The notes below the pieces were generated by a model. It saw nothing but the letters and a program-made list of their open reading frames with translations. It was not told the DNA's origin and searched no databases. Position numbers and translations under genes: made by a program. From Elusimicrobiaceae bacterium (GTDB taxonomy: Bacteria; Elusimicrobiota; Elusimicrobia; Elusimicrobiales; Elusimicrobiaceae), in assembly GCA_017534965.1 (NCBI GenBank), contig JAFXVA010000008.1, positions 75,409 through 139,408 on the forward strand: DNA of 64,000 nt, given 5' to 3'. Below, piece by piece: positions 12,601 through 31,838 of the stretch. The first letter of the stretch is position 1; each line of letters opens with the position of its first letter.

Positions 12601-12635
12601 GAAAACCCTGAGTAAAAAACACTCGGGGTTTTTTG
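12601..12635 (+). terminator. rho-independent terminator of pfp
   Basis: AACCCTGAGT / ACTCGGGGTT hairpin followed by TTTT. Confidence 0.75.
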
Positions 12636-12642
12636 TTATAAT
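12634..12642 (+). promoter_or_regulatory. extended -10 element (TGTTATAAT), candidate promoter of leader RNA copy A
   Basis: TGnTATAAT directly after the pfp terminator. Confidence 0.4.
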
Positions 12643-12648
12643 AGAAAC

Positions 12649-12875
12649 ATAAGCAAATTTTGCTTATAAAAATTTAATCTGTTTTTGGGCCGTAATACGG
12701 ACTTGGTTTTTATTAAAAACCTCGCGCTAAACCAAAAACAGCCAGTTTAGGCGTATTATTTTTTCAGCCGATCCCTGAAAGATAATATGCCGAATATCTG
12801 TTATCTTTTGATAACAGATTACGGCTGTTATTGGTAGAGAAGTTTAGCGCGACTCGCCATTAGTAGCCGTTTTTT
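12649..12875 (+). promoter_or_regulatory. candidate cis-regulatory leader RNA (riboswitch-like attenuator), copy A
   Basis: No ORF. Nested stems P1 12722-12732/12842-12852 and P2 12737-12743/12823-12829, with internal hairpins. Competing terminator 12821-12834/12857-12870 plus T5. Homologous architecture at 29245-29545. Confidence 0.6.
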
Positions 12876-12911
12876 ATGCTCCCGAAACAGAATAATTAAC
12901 GGAGTATAAAA

Positions 12912-13463
12912 ATGAAAAAGAATAAAGGTTTCACTTTGATTGAAGTTCTTGTAGTTGTTTTAATAATCGGTATTTTAGCAGCAATTGCTGTGCCAAAATA
13001 TCAATATGCCGTTTTAAAAACTAAATATCATACCATAATGGATATGGCAAAAGCAGTAAAAGAATTTCAGGAAGTTTATTATATGGCAAACGGAAAATAT
13101 GCCGAGCATTTCAGCGAACTTGATTTTTCCTTACCCAGCGGAGGAGAGATAGGTCATTTTGTCGGTGCAAATAACGGAACTGCCGCTGTTAATAATTTAG
13201 CCCAATATGAAGCTATGTTTTTTGATGGCGGAAATAAGGTTATTGTCCTTTTTCCTAATCAAGTAATTGGTTTAGTATTAAAAGATGGTAATAGGTTTAT
13301 GGACTATAATTTAAGATTAAACAATATAAATATGTGGAACGGTGCAAGGGCTTTATGTGCCGCTTGGGGAACAAGCCAAGGTGAAAAACTCTGCAGGGAT
13401 TTGTCGCAAAAGCCGGAAACTTGCGGTGTAGGCGGAAGCAGATATACTTGTAGGTTGTTTTAA
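12912..13463 (+). CDS. pilin-like protein with prepilin-type N-terminal cleavage/methylation signal
   Basis: MKKNKGFTLIEVLVVVLIIGILAAIAVPKYQ. C-terminal Cys pairs. Confidence 0.85.
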   Translation: MKKNKGFTLIEVLVVVLIIGILAAIAVPKYQYAVLKTKYHTIMDMAKAVKEFQEVYYMANGKYAEHFSELDFSLPSGGEIGHFVGANNGTAAVNNLAQYEAMFFDGGNKVIVLFPNQVIGLVLKDGNRFMDYNLRLNNINMWNGARALCAAWGTSQGEKLCRDLSQKPETCGVGGSRYTCRLF

Positions 13464-25558: not shown

Positions 25559-25600
25559 TCTTTAGTTTTGTTAAATGATAAAATATATATAGGGGATTAT

Positions 25601-26641
25601 ATGGATATATCGCACCTGAGTTTTGTATTATTAACTATTATTGTTCTTTCGGCTTTGTTTTTGCCTTTTTTGTGGCATAAGGCAGAAGAAGAACTTGAAA
25701 TATTTTTATTTTGTCTTGGTGTGCTTGCCACAACGGCAAGTTCTTGCTGGTCTTGGGACTTAATAAAACATACTCTTGCCCACCCTATAGCAATTTCACT
25801 GGCCGTATTAATCACAGGTTTATTATTTAATTTCTTTAAAGACAAAATAACCTATTGTGTGGAATTTTGTTCCGAAAAATTCGGCCTAAAAAGAACAATC
25901 TTTTGGGCTGTTGTTTTATTATCTTTTCTTTCAAGTATCATAACGGCAATTATTGCTGCTTTAATTTTGTGCGAAATCGTTTTTGCTTTAAGAATTAACC
26001 GCAAAGATTCCTTAAAAGTTATTGTTATGGGCTGTTTTGCTATAGGTGTAGGTGCCGTTTTAACCCGTATAGGAGAACCCCTTTCCGTAATAGTTATTGA
26101 TAAACTTTCCGGTCCGCCACATTATGCCGGTTTCTTCTTTTTACTTAAACTTTTATGGCCTTATATTATACCTGCAATTTTATTTTTTGCTTATATGGCA
26201 AGCCGTATTTCCGGCACTCAAAATAAAACTAAACAACGCATGGAAAAAGAAACTTTTAGTGTTATCTTTTTGCGTGCGGGAAAAATTTACCTTTTTATTA
26301 TGGCTCTTGTTTTGTTTGGGGAAGGTCTTTCCCCTCTTGCAAGGGCTACTATACAGAAACTTCCGCCAAGTTTTCTATATTGGGCTAACTCTTTTTCCGC
26401 AATTTTAGATAATGCAACTTTAGCCGCAGCAGAAATTGTGCCGGAAATGACAACGGCACAAATTGAATTTTTACTTATTGCTTTAATTATCTCAGGAGGG
26501 TTTTTAATACCGGGCAATATACCAAATATTATTTGTGCCTCAAAATTTAAAATTAAAAGCAGCGATTGGGCAAGACTTGCTTTGCCTGTTGGACTTGGTA
26601 TAATGTTTATATACTTTATTATTCTTAATATATTTGCTTAA
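25601..26641 (+). CDS. polytopic membrane protein (putative transporter, unknown specificity)
   Basis: About 10 hydrophobic segments. ATG at 25601 is preceded by AGGGGA and is preferred over the TTG at 25568. Confidence 0.6.
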   Translation: MDISHLSFVLLTIIVLSALFLPFLWHKAEEELEIFLFCLGVLATTASSCWSWDLIKHTLAHPIAISLAVLITGLLFNFFKDKITYCVEFCSEKFGLKRTIFWAVVLLSFLSSIITAIIAALILCEIVFALRINRKDSLKVIVMGCFAIGVGAVLTRIGEPLSVIVIDKLSGPPHYAGFFFLLKLLWPYIIPAILFFAYMASRISGTQNKTKQRMEKETFSVIFLRAGKIYLFIMALVLFGEGLSPLARATIQKLPPSFLYWANSFSAILDNATLAAAEIVPEMTTAQIEFLLIALIISGGFLIPGNIPNIICASKFKIKSSDWARLALPVGLGIMFIYFIILNIFA

Positions 26642-26661
26642 CTATATGTAAGGAGAAAATA

Positions 26662-27303
26662 ATGATAGAAAATTCCGAAATTGTTTTGCGTTTAATAACC
26701 GCTTTAGTTTTTGGCGGAATTATAGGGCTTGAAAGACAATATCACGATAAACCTGCCGGCTTTGCAACCAATACTCTTATTTGCGTAGGTTCAGCCGTAT
26801 TTGCTTTACTATCCATACTTTCTGCTTATTATCTTGGCGGTGATCCGGCAAGAATTGCCGCACAAATTGTGGCCGGTGTCGGCTTTTTGGGTGCCGGTTC
26901 TATTTTAAGAGATGGTAATAAAATTTCCGGCTTAACTACCGCTGCCGGTATTTGGCTTGTAGCAGCTGTCGGCATGGCTGTTGGCTATGGTTATTACTTT
27001 ATCGGTGCGGTGGCAACCGGTTGTGTTTTAGGATTACAACTTTTTGTGCGCAAATTAATGAATACTTTTGATTATGTGCAACTTTATGATTCTTTAACAA
27101 TAAAATGCACGCCAAATTGGAAATTTGTAGAAAAAATAAAATCCGTTTTTAAAAATAATGATGCTGAAATTATTAAGGAGGAAGTCTATAAAGAAAATGG
27201 CTTACTTGTTTTGAAAATGGTTGTAAATATGTCTGCAACTAAATATCAAAATATTGTAAAAGAGTTGGCACCTTTAGAAGATGTCAAATTAATAGACAAA
27301 TAA
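26662..27303 (+). CDS. MgtC/SapB family membrane protein
   Basis: GGIIGLERQYHDKPAGFATNTLICVGSA is the MgtC signature. C-terminal soluble ACT-like domain. Confidence 0.85.
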   Translation: MIENSEIVLRLITALVFGGIIGLERQYHDKPAGFATNTLICVGSAVFALLSILSAYYLGGDPARIAAQIVAGVGFLGAGSILRDGNKISGLTTAAGIWLVAAVGMAVGYGYYFIGAVATGCVLGLQLFVRKLMNTFDYVQLYDSLTIKCTPNWKFVEKIKSVFKNNDAEIIKEEVYKENGLLVLKMVVNMSATKYQNIVKELAPLEDVKLIDK

Positions 27304-29244: not shown

Positions 29245-29545
29245 TGCTAAAATAATTTTAGCAGAAAAAATTTAGGAGAAAATTTTTAATGTAGGTCTTA
29301 AAAGAGGCCTAAAACAATTTTAAGCATTTTTGGAACCTTGTTTTTTTAGAACAAGGAGAACTTTTGAGAAATCAAAAGAACTAAGCGGTCCAAAAACAGC
29401 TCGTATTTGAGGCACGCAGGAACTTGGCTGATCCCCTTGATTTTGCGTGCCGAGTGTTTGCCGTTCTTATATTACTAAGAGCGGCAAACCACGGCTGTTG
29501 TATTTGGGTGTCCCGCTTAGTGCCCTTATACGACAGCCGTTTTTT
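29245..29545 (+). promoter_or_regulatory. candidate cis-regulatory leader RNA (riboswitch-like attenuator), copy B
   Basis: Same architecture as 12649-12875 with different stem sequences: P1 29380-29388/29513-29521, P2 29395-29401/29493-29499, P3 29411-29418/29444-29451, P4 29456-29463/29482-29489. Terminator 29491-29508/29523-29540 plus T-run. Confidence 0.6.
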
Positions 29546-29585
29546 ATTCGCAGTATTTGTTGCAAGGTTCCATATAGGAGAAATT

Positions 29586-31838
29586 ATGAAAAATGAAACA
29601 ATAAATATTTGTTTTGCAACAGATAATAACTACGCAAAATATATGGGACTTGCGCTAATGTCAATTTTAAAAAGCGCAAATAAAGAAGATAAATTACACT
29701 TTTTTATCTTGGATAATCAAATAAAACAAGAAGAAAAAGACAAAATTGCCACCCTTAAAAAAATAAAAGATTTTGAGATAACTTATATCTCTATAAACGA
29801 TGAGATATTTAAAAATTGCCATGCAAATCAAAAAGGGCTAAGCCTTACTGCTTTTGCCCGCTTTTTAGTGCCTTGGCTTATTGAGGTTGATAAACTGCTT
29901 TATTTAGATTGCGATATTTTTGTTCGCAAATCGCTTGCGCCTTTATTTTCATCCTTGAAAACAGACTTATTTAAGTTAAAAATTAAAATTATCTCTATTT
30001 ATTATTTAGCATTTTTTCTTTTACTTCAATTTTCCAGAATAGCCATTCTTAAAATATCTTCAAATTATTTCCAAGAATTAACAGGAAAAGATATTTTGCT
30101 TTCTTTTTTAAACGGCCTTCGTTTTGATTTTTATATACTTGCTTTGCTGCTGTTTCCTTTATTTATTTTGTTTATGCTACCTTATAAAAAGAAATTTATT
30201 ATAAATATTTTCCATATAGTATTTTCTATATTATTTCTCTGTTGCACCCTGTTTTGCGTTGGCGATATTATCTTTTTTATGTTCTTTAACAATCATATAG
30301 GCATAGAAGTGTTAACAAGTTTTACTCATTTTGGGCTTTTTACGCAGATGGCTTTTCAAAATTATTTTTATATTACTATTCCTTTAATTTTATTTTTCGC
30401 CTTGTATTTATTTTTTGTATTTAAAAAAACAAACTCTTATGAACTAATTGTTAAAAACAATAAAAAATATATTATAAAAAGTTTTGTTTTTATCTTGTGT
30501 CTTATTCTGTTAATGCCTTTAATGTTGCGCGGGAAACTAGAGATTAGAGGTAAAAATCTTGGCACCATGGATGCACAAATTTTGGGTAAAGACAGAACCG
30601 CCGACCTTATTTTAAACGGACCTTTTAATACTTATGAAGCTGTTAGAAAATCTTCCAAAAGAAAATTATATTTTAAAGAAGAAGATTTAAAAATAAAACA
30701 AAATCCCTCTTATAATATACCAGATGAAAATTACCCCTTTGAAAAGAAATTTGTAAATTTTAATTCAAAAAATGATAATTATAATTTTGTTTTACTTGTT
30801 TTGGAAAGTTTTGATCCTCTTTTACTGGAACAATACCCCCAAGATATACCTAATATCATAAAAATAAAGGAAGATGGTTTGTTTTTCTCCAATTTTTATT
30901 CTTCCGGTATGCGTTCTTTGCTGGGAATAACCGGAACAATATTTTCTCTGCCTTATGTATGGGGTATGCCTAATATGACTAATGGGCTTGGGGCAAAAAA
31001 CCTTTCCCGTTTGGCTCATTATTTTAACAATAAAGGGTATGAAACATTTTCTTTTACTACAGATATTGCCAGTGCAGATAAAGCAAATGAAATGGCAAAA
31101 TATCAAGGTTTTAACCAATTTTATGCTAAGGAAGATATCCCCGTAAAAAAGAAATACCCTCTCTTTAATAAAGGTTTTGATTGGGAAGGTTTTGAATTTA
31201 TTTTAGATAAAATAAACAATACAAACAAAAACTTTTTTGTTTACTTTTTTACTTCCAGTATGCACTCGCCTTACAATATTCTTTTAAGTGAAGAACATAA
31301 AAAATATCCGCAAGATACACAAGAACATCAATTTGTAAACAGAGCAATTTATGTTGATAGTTCTATAGGTAATTTCTTTGAAAAAGCAAAAAAAGAACTT
31401 TGGTTTGATAAAACAATTTTCTTTATTTTGCCGGACCATAGAGCCGTTTTAGCAAATAAAAACAACAGCAATATAAATTTAACCGACCAAAAGTTTAAAT
31501 CTTTTTTAATAATTTATGGCAAGCCTATTAAAGCCGGCATTAATGATAAAATAGCCACACAAGAAGATATTTTGCCTACCTTACTTGATTTATTAAACAC
31601 AGAAGAAAGTTTTGCTTCTTCGGGAGAAAGTCTTTTTGATAAAAACAGAAGCGATACTAAATTTATCTACGAGGAAAACAAAAACACTATTCATATTATA
31701 AGCCCGACAATAAAAGAACATTTTAGCGAAGAAACTCTTACCGATTTTGATAAGTTAACCCCTTTGGAAAAAGAGGCCCTAAAATATAATGAGGCAATTT
31801 ATAATGCCTTAAAAAATAATTCTTGGAAAAAGAAATAA
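29586..31838 (+). CDS. chimeric protein: N-terminal half of a family 8 glycosyltransferase fused to an LtaS/sulfatase-family membrane protein
   Basis: ATG at 29586 after AGGAG. Aa 1-113 are GT8-like (ICFATDNNY, DxD in LYLDCDIFV). From ~aa 124 there are 5 TM segments plus an extracellular sulfatase-type domain. The ORF-track start at 29424 is rejected because it lies in the leader RNA. Confidence 0.75.
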   Translation: MKNETINICFATDNNYAKYMGLALMSILKSANKEDKLHFFILDNQIKQEEKDKIATLKKIKDFEITYISINDEIFKNCHANQKGLSLTAFARFLVPWLIEVDKLLYLDCDIFVRKSLAPLFSSLKTDLFKLKIKIISIYYLAFFLLLQFSRIAILKISSNYFQELTGKDILLSFLNGLRFDFYILALLLFPLFILFMLPYKKKFIINIFHIVFSILFLCCTLFCVGDIIFFMFFNNHIGIEVLTSFTHFGLFTQMAFQNYFYITIPLILFFALYLFFVFKKTNSYELIVKNNKKYIIKSFVFILCLILLMPLMLRGKLEIRGKNLGTMDAQILGKDRTADLILNGPFNTYEAVRKSSKRKLYFKEEDLKIKQNPSYNIPDENYPFEKKFVNFNSKNDNYNFVLLVLESFDPLLLEQYPQDIPNIIKIKEDGLFFSNFYSSGMRSLLGITGTIFSLPYVWGMPNMTNGLGAKNLSRLAHYFNNKGYETFSFTTDIASADKANEMAKYQGFNQFYAKEDIPVKKKYPLFNKGFDWEGFEFILDKINNTNKNFFVYFFTSSMHSPYNILLSEEHKKYPQDTQEHQFVNRAIYVDSSIGNFFEKAKKELWFDKTIFFILPDHRAVLANKNNSNINLTDQKFKSFLIIYGKPIKAGINDKIATQEDILPTLLDLLNTEESFASSGESLFDKNRSDTKFIYEENKNTIHIISPTIKEHFSEETLTDFDKLTPLEKEALKYNEAIYNALKNNSWKKK

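Follow-up and report, generated by a model that had tools for sequence, protein, structure and literature searches.

Copy B, the stretch of DNA directly upstream of a gene for a protein of 750 amino acids with GT8 and sulfatase domains (the GT8-sulfatase gene), was analysed within a 64,000-nucleotide segment of the genome of an Elusimicrobiaceae bacterium (assembly GCA_017534965.1, contig JAFXVA010000008.1, positions 75,409 to 139,408), hereafter the window, which belongs to an ENA metagenome contig of 240 kb and whose first letter is position 1. Copy B and its counterpart upstream of a prepilin-type gene, copy A, are the only two members in the window of an undescribed RNA family of folded leaders of about 250 nucleotides (nt). 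Copy B is read here as the 5' leader of the GT8-sulfatase mRNA and as a member of a family of cis-acting transcription-attenuation RNAs in Elusimicrobiaceae, a reading to which a probability of about 0.75 is given.

Two mutually exclusive folds are proposed for this leader. In the OFF fold, a 5' segment, alpha, would pair with a second segment, beta, and a third, gamma, would pair with a fourth, delta, to form an intrinsic terminator followed by a U-run. In the ON fold, beta would pair with gamma (helix P2), lengthened by a gene-specific helix P1, which would close a three-way junction with the hairpins P3 and P4 and remove the 5' arm of the terminator. The layout would then be that of a 1:2 / 2:3 / 3:4 attenuator with alpha as anti-antiterminator, to which a fifth segment, epsilon, is added that could take alpha after read-through. 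The features of copy B, upstream of the ATG at 29586, are as follows:

29292..29311, + strand: variable 5' hairpin UAGGUCUU-AAAA-GAGGCCUA, read from the sequence
about 29314-29581, + strand: whole leader, with its core at 29378-29524
29314..29340, + strand: ACAAUUUU plus alpha, 5' strand of the long-range helix that closes the leader, by duplex prediction
29324-29333, + strand: alpha core GCAUUUUUGG, of which UUUUUGG (29327-29333) is complementary to beta
29331-29340, + strand: UGGAACCUUG, segment complementary to epsilon, by duplex prediction
29336..29356, + strand: Pa hairpin, CCUUGUU...AACAAGG, with a covarying stem of 5 base pairs (bp)
29361..29378, + strand: Pb hairpin, CUUUUGA-GAAA-UCAAAAG, with a GNRA tetraloop, from sequence and predicted fold
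29380..29388, + strand: 5' arm of P1, ACUAAGCGG, partner of 29513-29521
29390..29400, + strand: beta, CCAAAAACAGC, 5' arm of P2 that could pair with alpha instead, from sequence and predicted fold
29411..29451, + strand: P3 hairpin, arms 29411-29418 and 29444-29451, supported by covariation
29428-29434, + strand: apical loop of P3, CUGAUCC, with the self-complementary GAUC at 29430-29433 (CU-GAUC-C)
29456..29489, + strand: P4 hairpin, GUUUGCCGUUCUU...AAGAGCGGCAAAC, arms 29456-29463 and 29482-29489, supported by covariation
29491..29508, + strand: gamma, 3' arm of P2 CGGCUGUU plus 5' arm of the terminator ACGGCUGUUGUAUUUGGG, common to the two mutually exclusive helices
29491-29499, + strand: conserved block ACGGCTGTT, read from the sequence
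29513..29521, + strand: 3' arm of P1, CCGCUUAGU, inside the terminator loop, from sequence and covariation
29523..29545, + strand: delta, 3' arm of the terminator CCCUUAUACGACAGCCG plus the U-run at 29540-29545, from the minimum-energy fold, with 12 consensus pairs
29535-29545, + strand: conserved end block AGCCGTTTTTT, read from the sequence
29562..29572, + strand: epsilon, GCAAGGUUCCA, post-terminator partner of the 5' end by duplex prediction, directly 5' of the Shine-Dalgarno sequence
29576-29580, + strand: Shine-Dalgarno sequence AGGAG, followed by the ATG at 29586
29586..31838, + strand: GT8-sulfatase gene, 750 amino acids, with PF01501 at residues 7-122 and PF00884 at residues 400-671 (Pfam)

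The helices and blocks that had been proposed in an original prediction, made from the letters of the window (P1, P3, P4, the hairpin at 29361-29378, CCAAAAACAGC, ACGGCTGTT and AGCCGTTTTTT), were all recovered at the positions listed above, and the P3-loop block GCTGATCCC is present as well, spanning 29427-29435 and not 29427-29436. The architecture it described stood while the limits it gave did not, the leader starting about 65 nt 5' of P1 with ACAAUUU and alpha and running past the T-run to epsilon. Likewise, Pb is the single hairpin that had been placed 5' of P1, where there are in fact two, Pa and Pb.

Distribution and covariation of the leader family

One genome per GTDB species was scanned with a gapped pattern derived from three blocks common to copies A and B. 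This first scan returned 42 loci, 31 of which are found in metagenome-assembled genomes (MAGs) of Elusimicrobiaceae, Avelusimicrobium or Elusimicrobium. A covariance model, R1, was built from relatives for the P2-P3-P4 core with the beta and gamma blocks; P1 was lost from the model since MAFFT aligned the variable hairpins poorly, and it was assessed separately. Under R1, copy B scores 95.2 bits (E about 3e-23) and copy A 108.9 bits, and no third copy was found in the window by regular expression or by R1, the next best score there being 18 bits. The remaining 11 of the 42 loci, from other phyla, reach at most 24.7 bits with R1 and are chance matches of the pattern. One locus counted among the 31, L005 (CAVKWQ010000003.1), is labelled Muribaculaceae and yet carries a typical Elusimicrobiaceae leader (119.6 bits) and a zinc-ribbon gene as in L022 and L144; this contig is probably mis-binned.

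Four diverged copies that had escaped the pattern were also revealed by R1 in the retrieved loci, and a metagenome scan whose pattern fixed only alpha and beta gave at least 120 loci, about 75 of those listed matching R1. Altogether there are at least 112 R1 matches with at least 106 distinct cores, nearly all from Elusimicrobiaceae MAGs and from gut or rumen metagenomes; family counts given hereafter (n = 98-106) were taken among the matches listed. Further copies do precede pilin-like and envelope genes elsewhere, these matches being located mostly before prepilin-like genes. At gathering threshold, Rfam 15 returned only a tRNA for the window, and the permissive scans gave nothing relevant at E <= 10 for copy B, E <= 5 for copy A and E <= 1 for seven other members; the c-di-GMP-I (cyclic di-GMP) riboswitch model scored 15 bits against copy B, on the wrong strand, for a gathering score of 35. 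No description of this leader was found in the searchable literature on riboswitches, noncoding RNA or pilins of Elusimicrobia and Elusimicrobium, and of six pattern matches in IMG/VR viral contigs none fits R1.

Compared with dinucleotide shuffles, the folding of both copies is strongly favoured (z = -7.3 for B and -7.6 for A). Between the two copies, only 22 of 80 stem columns outside P2 are identical (27%), against 13 of 14 in P2 and 27 of 49 unpaired columns; the P1 arms are unrelated in sequence between A and B and perfectly complementary within each. Eight pairs of P3 and six of P4 are altered on both sides with their pairing kept, in agreement with the compensatory stem changes initially proposed. 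RNAalifold on the alignment of the 31 sequences returned the P1-P2-P3-P4 fold with an extra 5' hairpin, and in the P1-P4 fold 93.1% of cells are paired, compared to 70.5% after column shuffling and 36-44% when the partners were slid. The covariation score is 0.654 versus 0.226 for shuffled alignments, and none of 500 shuffles reached the observed value on any of five measures, so that the proposed compensatory pairs hold against shuffled controls. Changes on both sides were noted for 9/9 pairs of P1, 14/16 of P3 and 9/10 of P4. In an alignment of 105 members, fitted to the R1 structure and hence with somewhat inflated pair counts, 94.8% of cells are paired compared to 76.7% in the shuffled alignment, with double changes in all 17 pairs of P3 and all 10 of P4 (27 together). 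P1, P3 and P4 covary over more than 100 members, which argues for a functional RNA and not for a recent duplication, as had been suggested. In the 31-sequence set, G.U and U.G pairs number 126 and A.C and C.A pairs 17; this excess indicates that the selected molecule is the + strand RNA.

Two tests made without any alignment are in accord with these results. The P1 arms pair with their own partner at -15.1 +/- 2.3 kcal/mol and with the partners of other members at -5.4 +/- 2.3 kcal/mol (p = 1e-61), and 103 members have 80 distinct P1 5' arms between them. In the terminator stem, the variable part binds its own partner at -7.7 kcal/mol and others at -4.6 kcal/mol (p = 2e-25); the terminator as a whole has 12 consensus pairs, with covariation in its inner part and many G.U pairs, and the delta core and T-run are present in 99 of 106 members. 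The overlap of the terminator with the 3' arm of P2 noted in the original prediction is thus upheld, gamma being the segment common to both helices and the terminator itself covarying. In the diverged copies P2 covaries and the 3' arm of the terminator changes in step: L036b has beta AAUAGCC, gamma GGCUAUU and delta UUAGCC, L004b has beta ACAACU, gamma GGUUGUU and delta GAACC, and L027b retains P2 via wobble pairs. Since both mutually exclusive folds covary, both are under selection, which is the signature of a switch.

Around the junction, near-invariant unpaired bases are found as an A 5' of P3 (95%), as G-A(96%)-R-U(90%) between P3 and P4, and as Y-A-C(99%) 5' of gamma, while the P4 loops of the family are mostly GNRA, UUCG or U-rich. 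RNAalifold did not call alpha:beta or Pb in the 5' part because MAFFT had misaligned the variable hairpins there, and per-sequence folding and duplex tests were used instead.

The 5' module, epsilon and the predicted default state

Alpha (CUGUUUUUGG) lies about 40-65 nt 5' of beta, of which it is the exact complement, and is preceded by a conserved ACAAUUU, with -10-like boxes further 5', such as TGTTATAAT in copy A. Alpha was found in nearly all members of the first scan and in the four diverged copies, though the first pattern did not require it, and together with the ACAAUUU block it is conserved in sequence beyond what pairing needs. Of the two hairpins between alpha and P1, Pa usually ends in a GNAGA pentaloop (40 of 104 members: GCAGA in 18, GAAGA in 13 and GUAGA in 9) and Pb usually in a GNRA tetraloop (GAAA in 26, GCAA in 9 and GUAA in 3); these loops could be a protein-binding site or could make tertiary contacts. 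In copy B, 4 nt are inserted in the Pa loop when it is compared with the orthologue L021. The promoter of copy B is placed upstream of the 29292..29311 hairpin. At the equivalent position, the orthologues L021, L031 and L034 have another hairpin with GTTATAAT before it, and conservation begins sharply at AACAATTTT; across the four orthologous copy-B leaders, it extends from the abrupt onset at AACAAUUUU through to the start codon.

Directly 3' of the U-run, many members carry epsilon as CCAAAAACAG(A)AAUUG, complementary to alpha and ACAAUUU. The duplex of the 5' segment with the post-terminator segment averages -14.8 kcal/mol versus -10.0 kcal/mol for shuffles (p = 2e-16). Own and non-own partners differ little in alpha:epsilon (-14.8 vs -14.0, p = 0.08), because both sides are conserved. 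Compensation is nevertheless seen where they vary: GGAACC:GGUUCC is swapped for GGAGCC:GGCUCC, GCG:CGC variants occur, L022 has alpha GCGUUUUUGG with epsilon CCCAAAACGC, and in the copy-B group UGGAACCUUG (29331-29340) is predicted to pair with CAAGGUUCCA (29563-29572), a duplex of which L031 has a G.U variant.

Folding with alpha included gives both leaders a minimum-energy structure that contains alpha:beta, Pa, Pb, P3, P4 and the terminator. The predicted energies of the OFF fold and of the ON fold, in which P1 and P2 were forced, are -91.4 versus -83.3 kcal/mol for copy B and -70.2 versus -68.7 kcal/mol for copy A, and alpha:beta is already present in the predicted fold of the nascent RNA up to gamma. 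Being transcribed first, alpha is predicted to capture beta once beta emerges, and termination would therefore be the default, possibly in vivo as well; the model energies thus favour the terminated state, which corrects the earlier description made without alpha. Read-through would need something that stabilises the P1-P2-P3-P4 domain, and in the read-through transcripts alpha and the ACAAUUU 5' of it would pair with epsilon beside the Shine-Dalgarno sequence, so that the whole leader would be closed. As input of the switch, the data are compatible with a small ligand at the junction, with a protein and with kissing between leaders.

The P3 loop and the candidate inputs

The original prediction had regarded GCYGATCCC in the P3 loop as a conserved switch element, which is true of copies A and B; in the metagenome set, which is unbiased, it is one loop among many, and the family as a whole has at least nine alternative types of self-complementary loop. 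The census of the P3 loop cores in 106 members is as follows:

GAUC: 39 members, 33 of them among the 37 copies at genome-scan loci, where the pattern required GATCCC
UAAUUA: 36 members
UUAUAA: 7 members
UCAUGA: 5 members
AGCU: 5 members
GUAC: 2 members
UUCGAA: 2 members, one as UUUCGAAA
GCUAGC: 1 member
UUGCAA: 1 member
ACGCGU: 1 member
no such core: 7 members, such as those in which a short P3 stem ends in a GACG loop

A palindrome strictly within the predicted P3 loop is at least 4 nt long in 96 of 104 members and at least 6 nt long in 49 of 104. In the P4 loops of these RNAs, a palindrome occurs 6 times out of 104. Counted over the 29 distinct P3 loops, 24 have a palindrome of at least 4 nt (9.7 expected) and 14 one of at least 6 nt (1.5 expected), values reached in 0 of 2000 loop shuffles (p < 0.0005). 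The palindrome is predominantly flanked by 2 nt on its 5' side and 1 nt on its 3' side; because of these unequal flanks, its axis is offset by half a nucleotide from that of the P3 stem, and it is therefore not simply the centre of a DNA palindrome. The changes between loop types are symmetric, UAAUUA, UUAUAA and UCAUGA differing at positions 2 and 5, and UUCGAA and UUGCAA at positions 3 and 4, which is the pattern that selection for self-pairing produces. Different types also occur on the same contig (GAUC and UAAUUA in L004, GAUC and AGCU in L027, UUAUAA and UAAUUA in L064, GAUC and UUCGAA in L099).

Two other partners for the loop were considered. An intramolecular one was rejected since few leaders have the palindrome a second time, and then at no consistent position (23 of 99, at scattered places). 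Pairing with 16S rRNA, whose GGAUCA near the 3' end is complemented by the GAUC-type loop, was dropped since the other loop types do not match.

Leaders of the same loop type may kiss, a nascent one with a terminated or full-length one, and thereby contribute to the decision between the two folds, possibly with the help of a small ligand or a protein. This is the reading favoured here, put forward tentatively and at somewhat less than even odds; of the candidate inputs, none but kissing accounts for the loop pattern. By extension, the loop types could define orthogonal 'kissing classes' in which the termination decision would track the amount of RNA of the same class, an RNA-RNA feedback that would give bistable and heritable ON/OFF states of pilin-like, glycosyltransferase, outer-membrane and DNA-methylase genes, in effect phase variation without any change of DNA; this further step is speculative and judged unlikely.

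Several points weigh against the attenuation reading or against the part given to kissing in it. Termination at the U-run and its modulation are both read from sequence and predicted fold, and a simple terminator scanner gave no call in the leader, because the terminator loop of about 14 nt exceeds the 8-nt limit of the scanner, while RNAfold and covariation do show the terminator. The pair counts of the 105-member alignment are inflated as said above. Alpha:beta is predicted from folding and complementarity, beta being fixed by both search patterns, and where alpha varies (GCG/GCA, copy-B group) the matching change is found in epsilon and not in beta; the sole role of alpha could therefore be that of 5' strand of the closing helix. 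As for the loop, the P3 loop is short or holds no palindrome in four to eight members (GACG, UUGC, UUUGU), kissing alone fails to explain the shift between ON and OFF because P3 is present in both folds, and kissing helices of 6 AU-only pairs or of 4 bp would be weak without Mg2+ or a helper.

A monomeric riboswitch, with a small molecule or second messenger that binds the P2/P3/P4 junction and stabilises the antiterminator, is the strongest of the other explanations and yet a rather unlikely one. It would account for the covarying multi-helix domain with its overlapping terminator, for the near-invariant unpaired bases of the junction and for the several copies per genome before a coherent set of surface genes, and it would resemble the c-di-GMP riboswitches located before pilin and adhesin genes in Clostridioides. 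It would do so, however, with few conserved unpaired positions for a pocket, with no Rfam 15 match even at E <= 10, and with the P3 palindrome taken as structural or incidental, which leaves unexplained at least nine loop sequences that are all self-complementary in the same frame. A crude GG[DE]EF motif scan over 657 kb of member loci gave no genuine GGDEF and a single type of non-GGDEF protein. Three leader-carrying loci, L047, L054 and L111, encode a conserved protein of unknown function with KIRFRFPGGEEFEAEGS, which is not a GGDEF domain.

Protein-dependent antitermination, less likely again, would have an RNA-binding protein or a Nus-type complex recognise the 5' module (alpha and the Pa GNAGA, a possible counterpart of a boxA/boxB nut site) or the junction and override the terminator. 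The conservation of alpha and ACAAUUU beyond pairing needs is consistent with such a recognition, as are the GNRA-like Pa pentaloops GAAGA, GCAGA or GUAGA of 40/104 members, the GNRA tetraloops of Pb and a heterogeneous regulon that would suit a dedicated regulator. On the other hand, the Pa loop is disrupted in copy B and its orthologues, and loops of the GNRA type are equally expected as intramolecular tertiary contacts; moreover, the elaborate P1-P4 domain and the palindromic loop would be left without explanation.

It is improbable that the terminated leader of about 230 nt is itself the main product, a trans-acting small RNA that would pair, for instance via its P3 loop or its P1 arms, with other RNAs, with cis control as a secondary function. 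Short transcripts should indeed accumulate if termination is the default as predicted, these RNAs are highly structured with stable GNRA or UUCG loops, and both the self-complementary loops, which imply RNA-RNA contacts, and the hypervariable P1 arms (80 variants in 103 members) would fit such a role. The position and orientation of the leader relative to the downstream open reading frame (ORF) are nonetheless strictly kept, with epsilon adjoining the Shine-Dalgarno sequence, and the strong selection on the antiterminator fold is sensible only if read-through matters.

More improbable still is an element acting at the DNA level, be it an invertible segment bounded by alpha/epsilon or alpha/beta repeats, a set of methylation-sensitive palindromes behind an epigenetic phase variation or a repeat like a miniature inverted-repeat transposable element (MITE). 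Inverted repeats of 10-20 bp are present, the downstream repertoire is typical of phase-variable loci, the loop cores are palindromes of the kind read by type II methylases with three leaders preceding genes of the EcoRI-methylase family, and the direct repeats beta and epsilon of L161 have a deletion between them. The genome scan, which was orientation-agnostic, nevertheless gave 31 members of which 29 have a same-strand downstream ORF with a Shine-Dalgarno sequence, and none that could be checked is inverted. The 126 G.U against 17 A.C pairs denote strand-specific selection on RNA, an identity of 27% with compensation in the stems of two copies of the same genome is unlike MITEs, the palindrome axis is off the stem axis by half a nucleotide and no member is found in IMG/VR viral contigs.

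In L161 (1440-1588), alpha, Pa, Pb, the 5' arm of P1 and beta are followed by a Shine-Dalgarno sequence and ATG, with P3, P4, gamma and the terminator missing; this terminator-less version looks to have arisen by loss of the DNA between beta and epsilon, which are direct repeats. Three conserved parts of the leader contain an AATT (5' ACAATTT, 3' AAATTG and the P3 loop TAATTA), and genes of the EcoRI-methylase family, whose relatives recognise AATT-containing sites, lie behind L002, L081 and L117; this link may be a coincidence in AT-rich DNA.

Translation of the region, whether into a leader peptide with a regulatory role or into an N-terminal extension that would start at TTG 29424, can practically be dismissed for the family: the frame 29424-29586 is open in the window and in three orthologues, four near-identical sequences that make the open frame uninformative, as already held in the original prediction, whereas the frame of the gene is stopped inside the leader in 89 of 98 members, the same leader precedes more than ten unrelated protein families, and the GT8 profile begins at residue 7 of the ATG-29586 protein, behind a good Shine-Dalgarno sequence. 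A leader-peptide attenuator was likewise rejected, there being no ORF 5' of alpha and no conserved peptide, with a sole recurrent AUG in the Pa loop that is followed by UAG in several members, and with stems that covary as RNA.

Downstream genes, copy A and known systems

Every member for which a downstream ORF could be called lies 20-395 nt (median about 60 nt) 5' of an ORF on the same strand. At least 56 of the 98 callable ORFs are of the prepilin type (GFTLIELLVV). The others include GT8 glycosyltransferases (copy B group, L007 and L123), GT2 glycosyltransferases, outer membrane protein (OMP) beta-barrels, three adenine methylases of the EcoRI family, an MmeI-methylase-like fragment, an HSDR_N protein, zinc-ribbon membrane proteins, a DUF805 protein, a GTPase and lipoproteins. 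Pilins, glycosyltransferases, OMPs, DNA methylases and restriction-related genes are the repertoire found under phase variation in other host-associated bacteria.

The leaders appear to be modular and to be exchanged or rapidly diversified, faster than the genes behind them, as judged by comparing sequences. Thus, L123 (4000-4132) precedes a near-identical GT8 gene while its P1, P3 and P4 are unrelated to those of window 29378-29524 and its loop is UCAUGA instead of GAUC; conversely, copy B, L022, L038 and L041 have near-identical P3 and P4, unrelated P1 arms and different genes.

The protein encoded behind copy B at 29586-31838 comprises a GT8 N-terminal part of 122 amino acids, transmembrane segments and a sulfatase/LtaS-type domain. 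The gene first labelled 'GT8/LtaS-like' is in fact a fusion of 122 GT8 residues to a sulfatase-type domain. Residues 4-122 are 94% identical to a 320-amino-acid GT8 enzyme of related MAGs, and the similarity stops there. The identical 750-amino-acid protein is recorded on three contigs, and the chimera is for this reason not a single assembly error. Further upstream in the copy B neighbourhood, DUF1646 and MgtC genes are located at window 25568-27303, and the Rfam scan of the window showed neither a DUF1646 (Na+) motif nor one of the M-box type.

The features of copy A, which lies at about 12700-12878 within 12649..12911, are as follows:

12649..12911, + strand: copy A, same family, upstream of a prepilin-type gene at 12912-13463 (N_methyl motif)
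12720-12854, + strand: core, at the R1 score given above (108.9 bits)
12634-12642, + strand: extended -10 box TGTTATAAT, followed by the 5' hairpin
12679-12688, + strand: alpha
12690-12700, + strand: Pa
12705-12721, + strand: Pb
12722-12732 and 12843-12853, + strand: P1
12732-12742, + strand: beta
12821-12834, + strand: gamma
ending at 12875, + strand: T-run, with epsilon CCCGAAACAGAAUAAUU downstream

Directly 5' of the extended -10 box, an intrinsic terminator AAAACCCUGAGU...ACUCGGGGUUUUUU at 12602-12635 closes a phosphofructokinase gene, and it follows from this placement that copy A has its own promoter.

Elusimicrobiaceae are common and barely studied inhabitants of human, rodent, bird and ruminant guts, and their many pilin-like genes have, to our knowledge, no known regulation. 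The family provides a testable regulatory unit with more than 100 examples, before gene classes whose expression is switched stochastically in other host-associated bacteria. As a switch it is an orphan, absent from Rfam 15, and finding its input would reveal either a riboswitch class or a mode of control that is new. The self-complementarity of one loop over at least nine orthogonal sequences is unusual, and if this loop mediates contact between leaders, RNA dimerisation would be tied to transcription attenuation; it would then be the first natural bacterial cis-regulator, as far as we know, to sense its own kind via a palindromic kissing loop. The hypervariable P1 arms and the orthogonal loops could also be used as parts in synthetic biology.

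With the T-box, PyrR and trp-type attenuators and the riboswitch platforms, the leader shares its place in a 5' untranslated region (UTR), a terminator 5' arm engaged in a competing helix and an upstream sequestering segment. It differs from them in having no leader peptide and no T-box or Rfam match, and in adding the fifth segment epsilon and a new P1-P2-P3-P4 sensor fold. The c-di-GMP-I and c-di-GMP-II riboswitches of Clostridia resemble it in being terminator-based and present in multiple copies before pilin-type or surface genes, and in Clostridioides they precede pilin and adhesin genes; the leader, in contrast, matches them neither in sequence nor in structure, and the crude motif scan over 657 kb of member loci gave no GGDEF.

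The 5' part may resemble the lambda nut site of N-type processive antitermination, in that a 5'-proximal hairpin with a GNRA-like pentaloop stands 3' of a conserved U-rich block and 5' of a terminator, GAAGA being the loop sequence of lambda nutR boxB. Nevertheless, the Pa loop of copy B is disrupted and the leaders have a large extra structured domain. Phase-variable regulons, such as those under invertible promoters in Bacteroides, share the gene repertoire and the gut hosts, whereas no DNA inversion or slippage of repeat tracts was seen among the checkable members, whose common element is a structured RNA.

The P3 hairpin, with its apical loop of 7-10 nt and a self-complementary 4-6-mer between unpaired flanks, is built like the HIV-1 dimerisation initiation site (DIS, AAGCGCGCA) and the loop of the oskar 3' UTR. 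The P3 loop is nonetheless that of a bacterial cis-regulatory leader, with flanks that are mostly pyrimidines and not purines and with AU-rich cores, and its dimerisation would be a property suggested by the loop pattern. The core moreover changes between members with its self-complementarity kept (UAAUUA, UUAUAA, UCAUGA, UUCGAA, UUGCAA, GAUC, AGCU and GUAC). Natural functional homodimers of RNA are considered rare, and in the guanidine-II (mini-ykkC) riboswitch hairpins pair loop to loop via a self-complementary core (PMC7357161). That RNA has two tandem hairpins with invariant, ligand-binding ACGR loops, whereas the leader described here has one such hairpin with a variable loop. Taken together, the leader is a new family of a known kind, that of terminator-based riboswitches and attenuators, and what is unusual about it is the five-segment pairing, the hypervariable P1 arms and the class-coded self-complementary loop.

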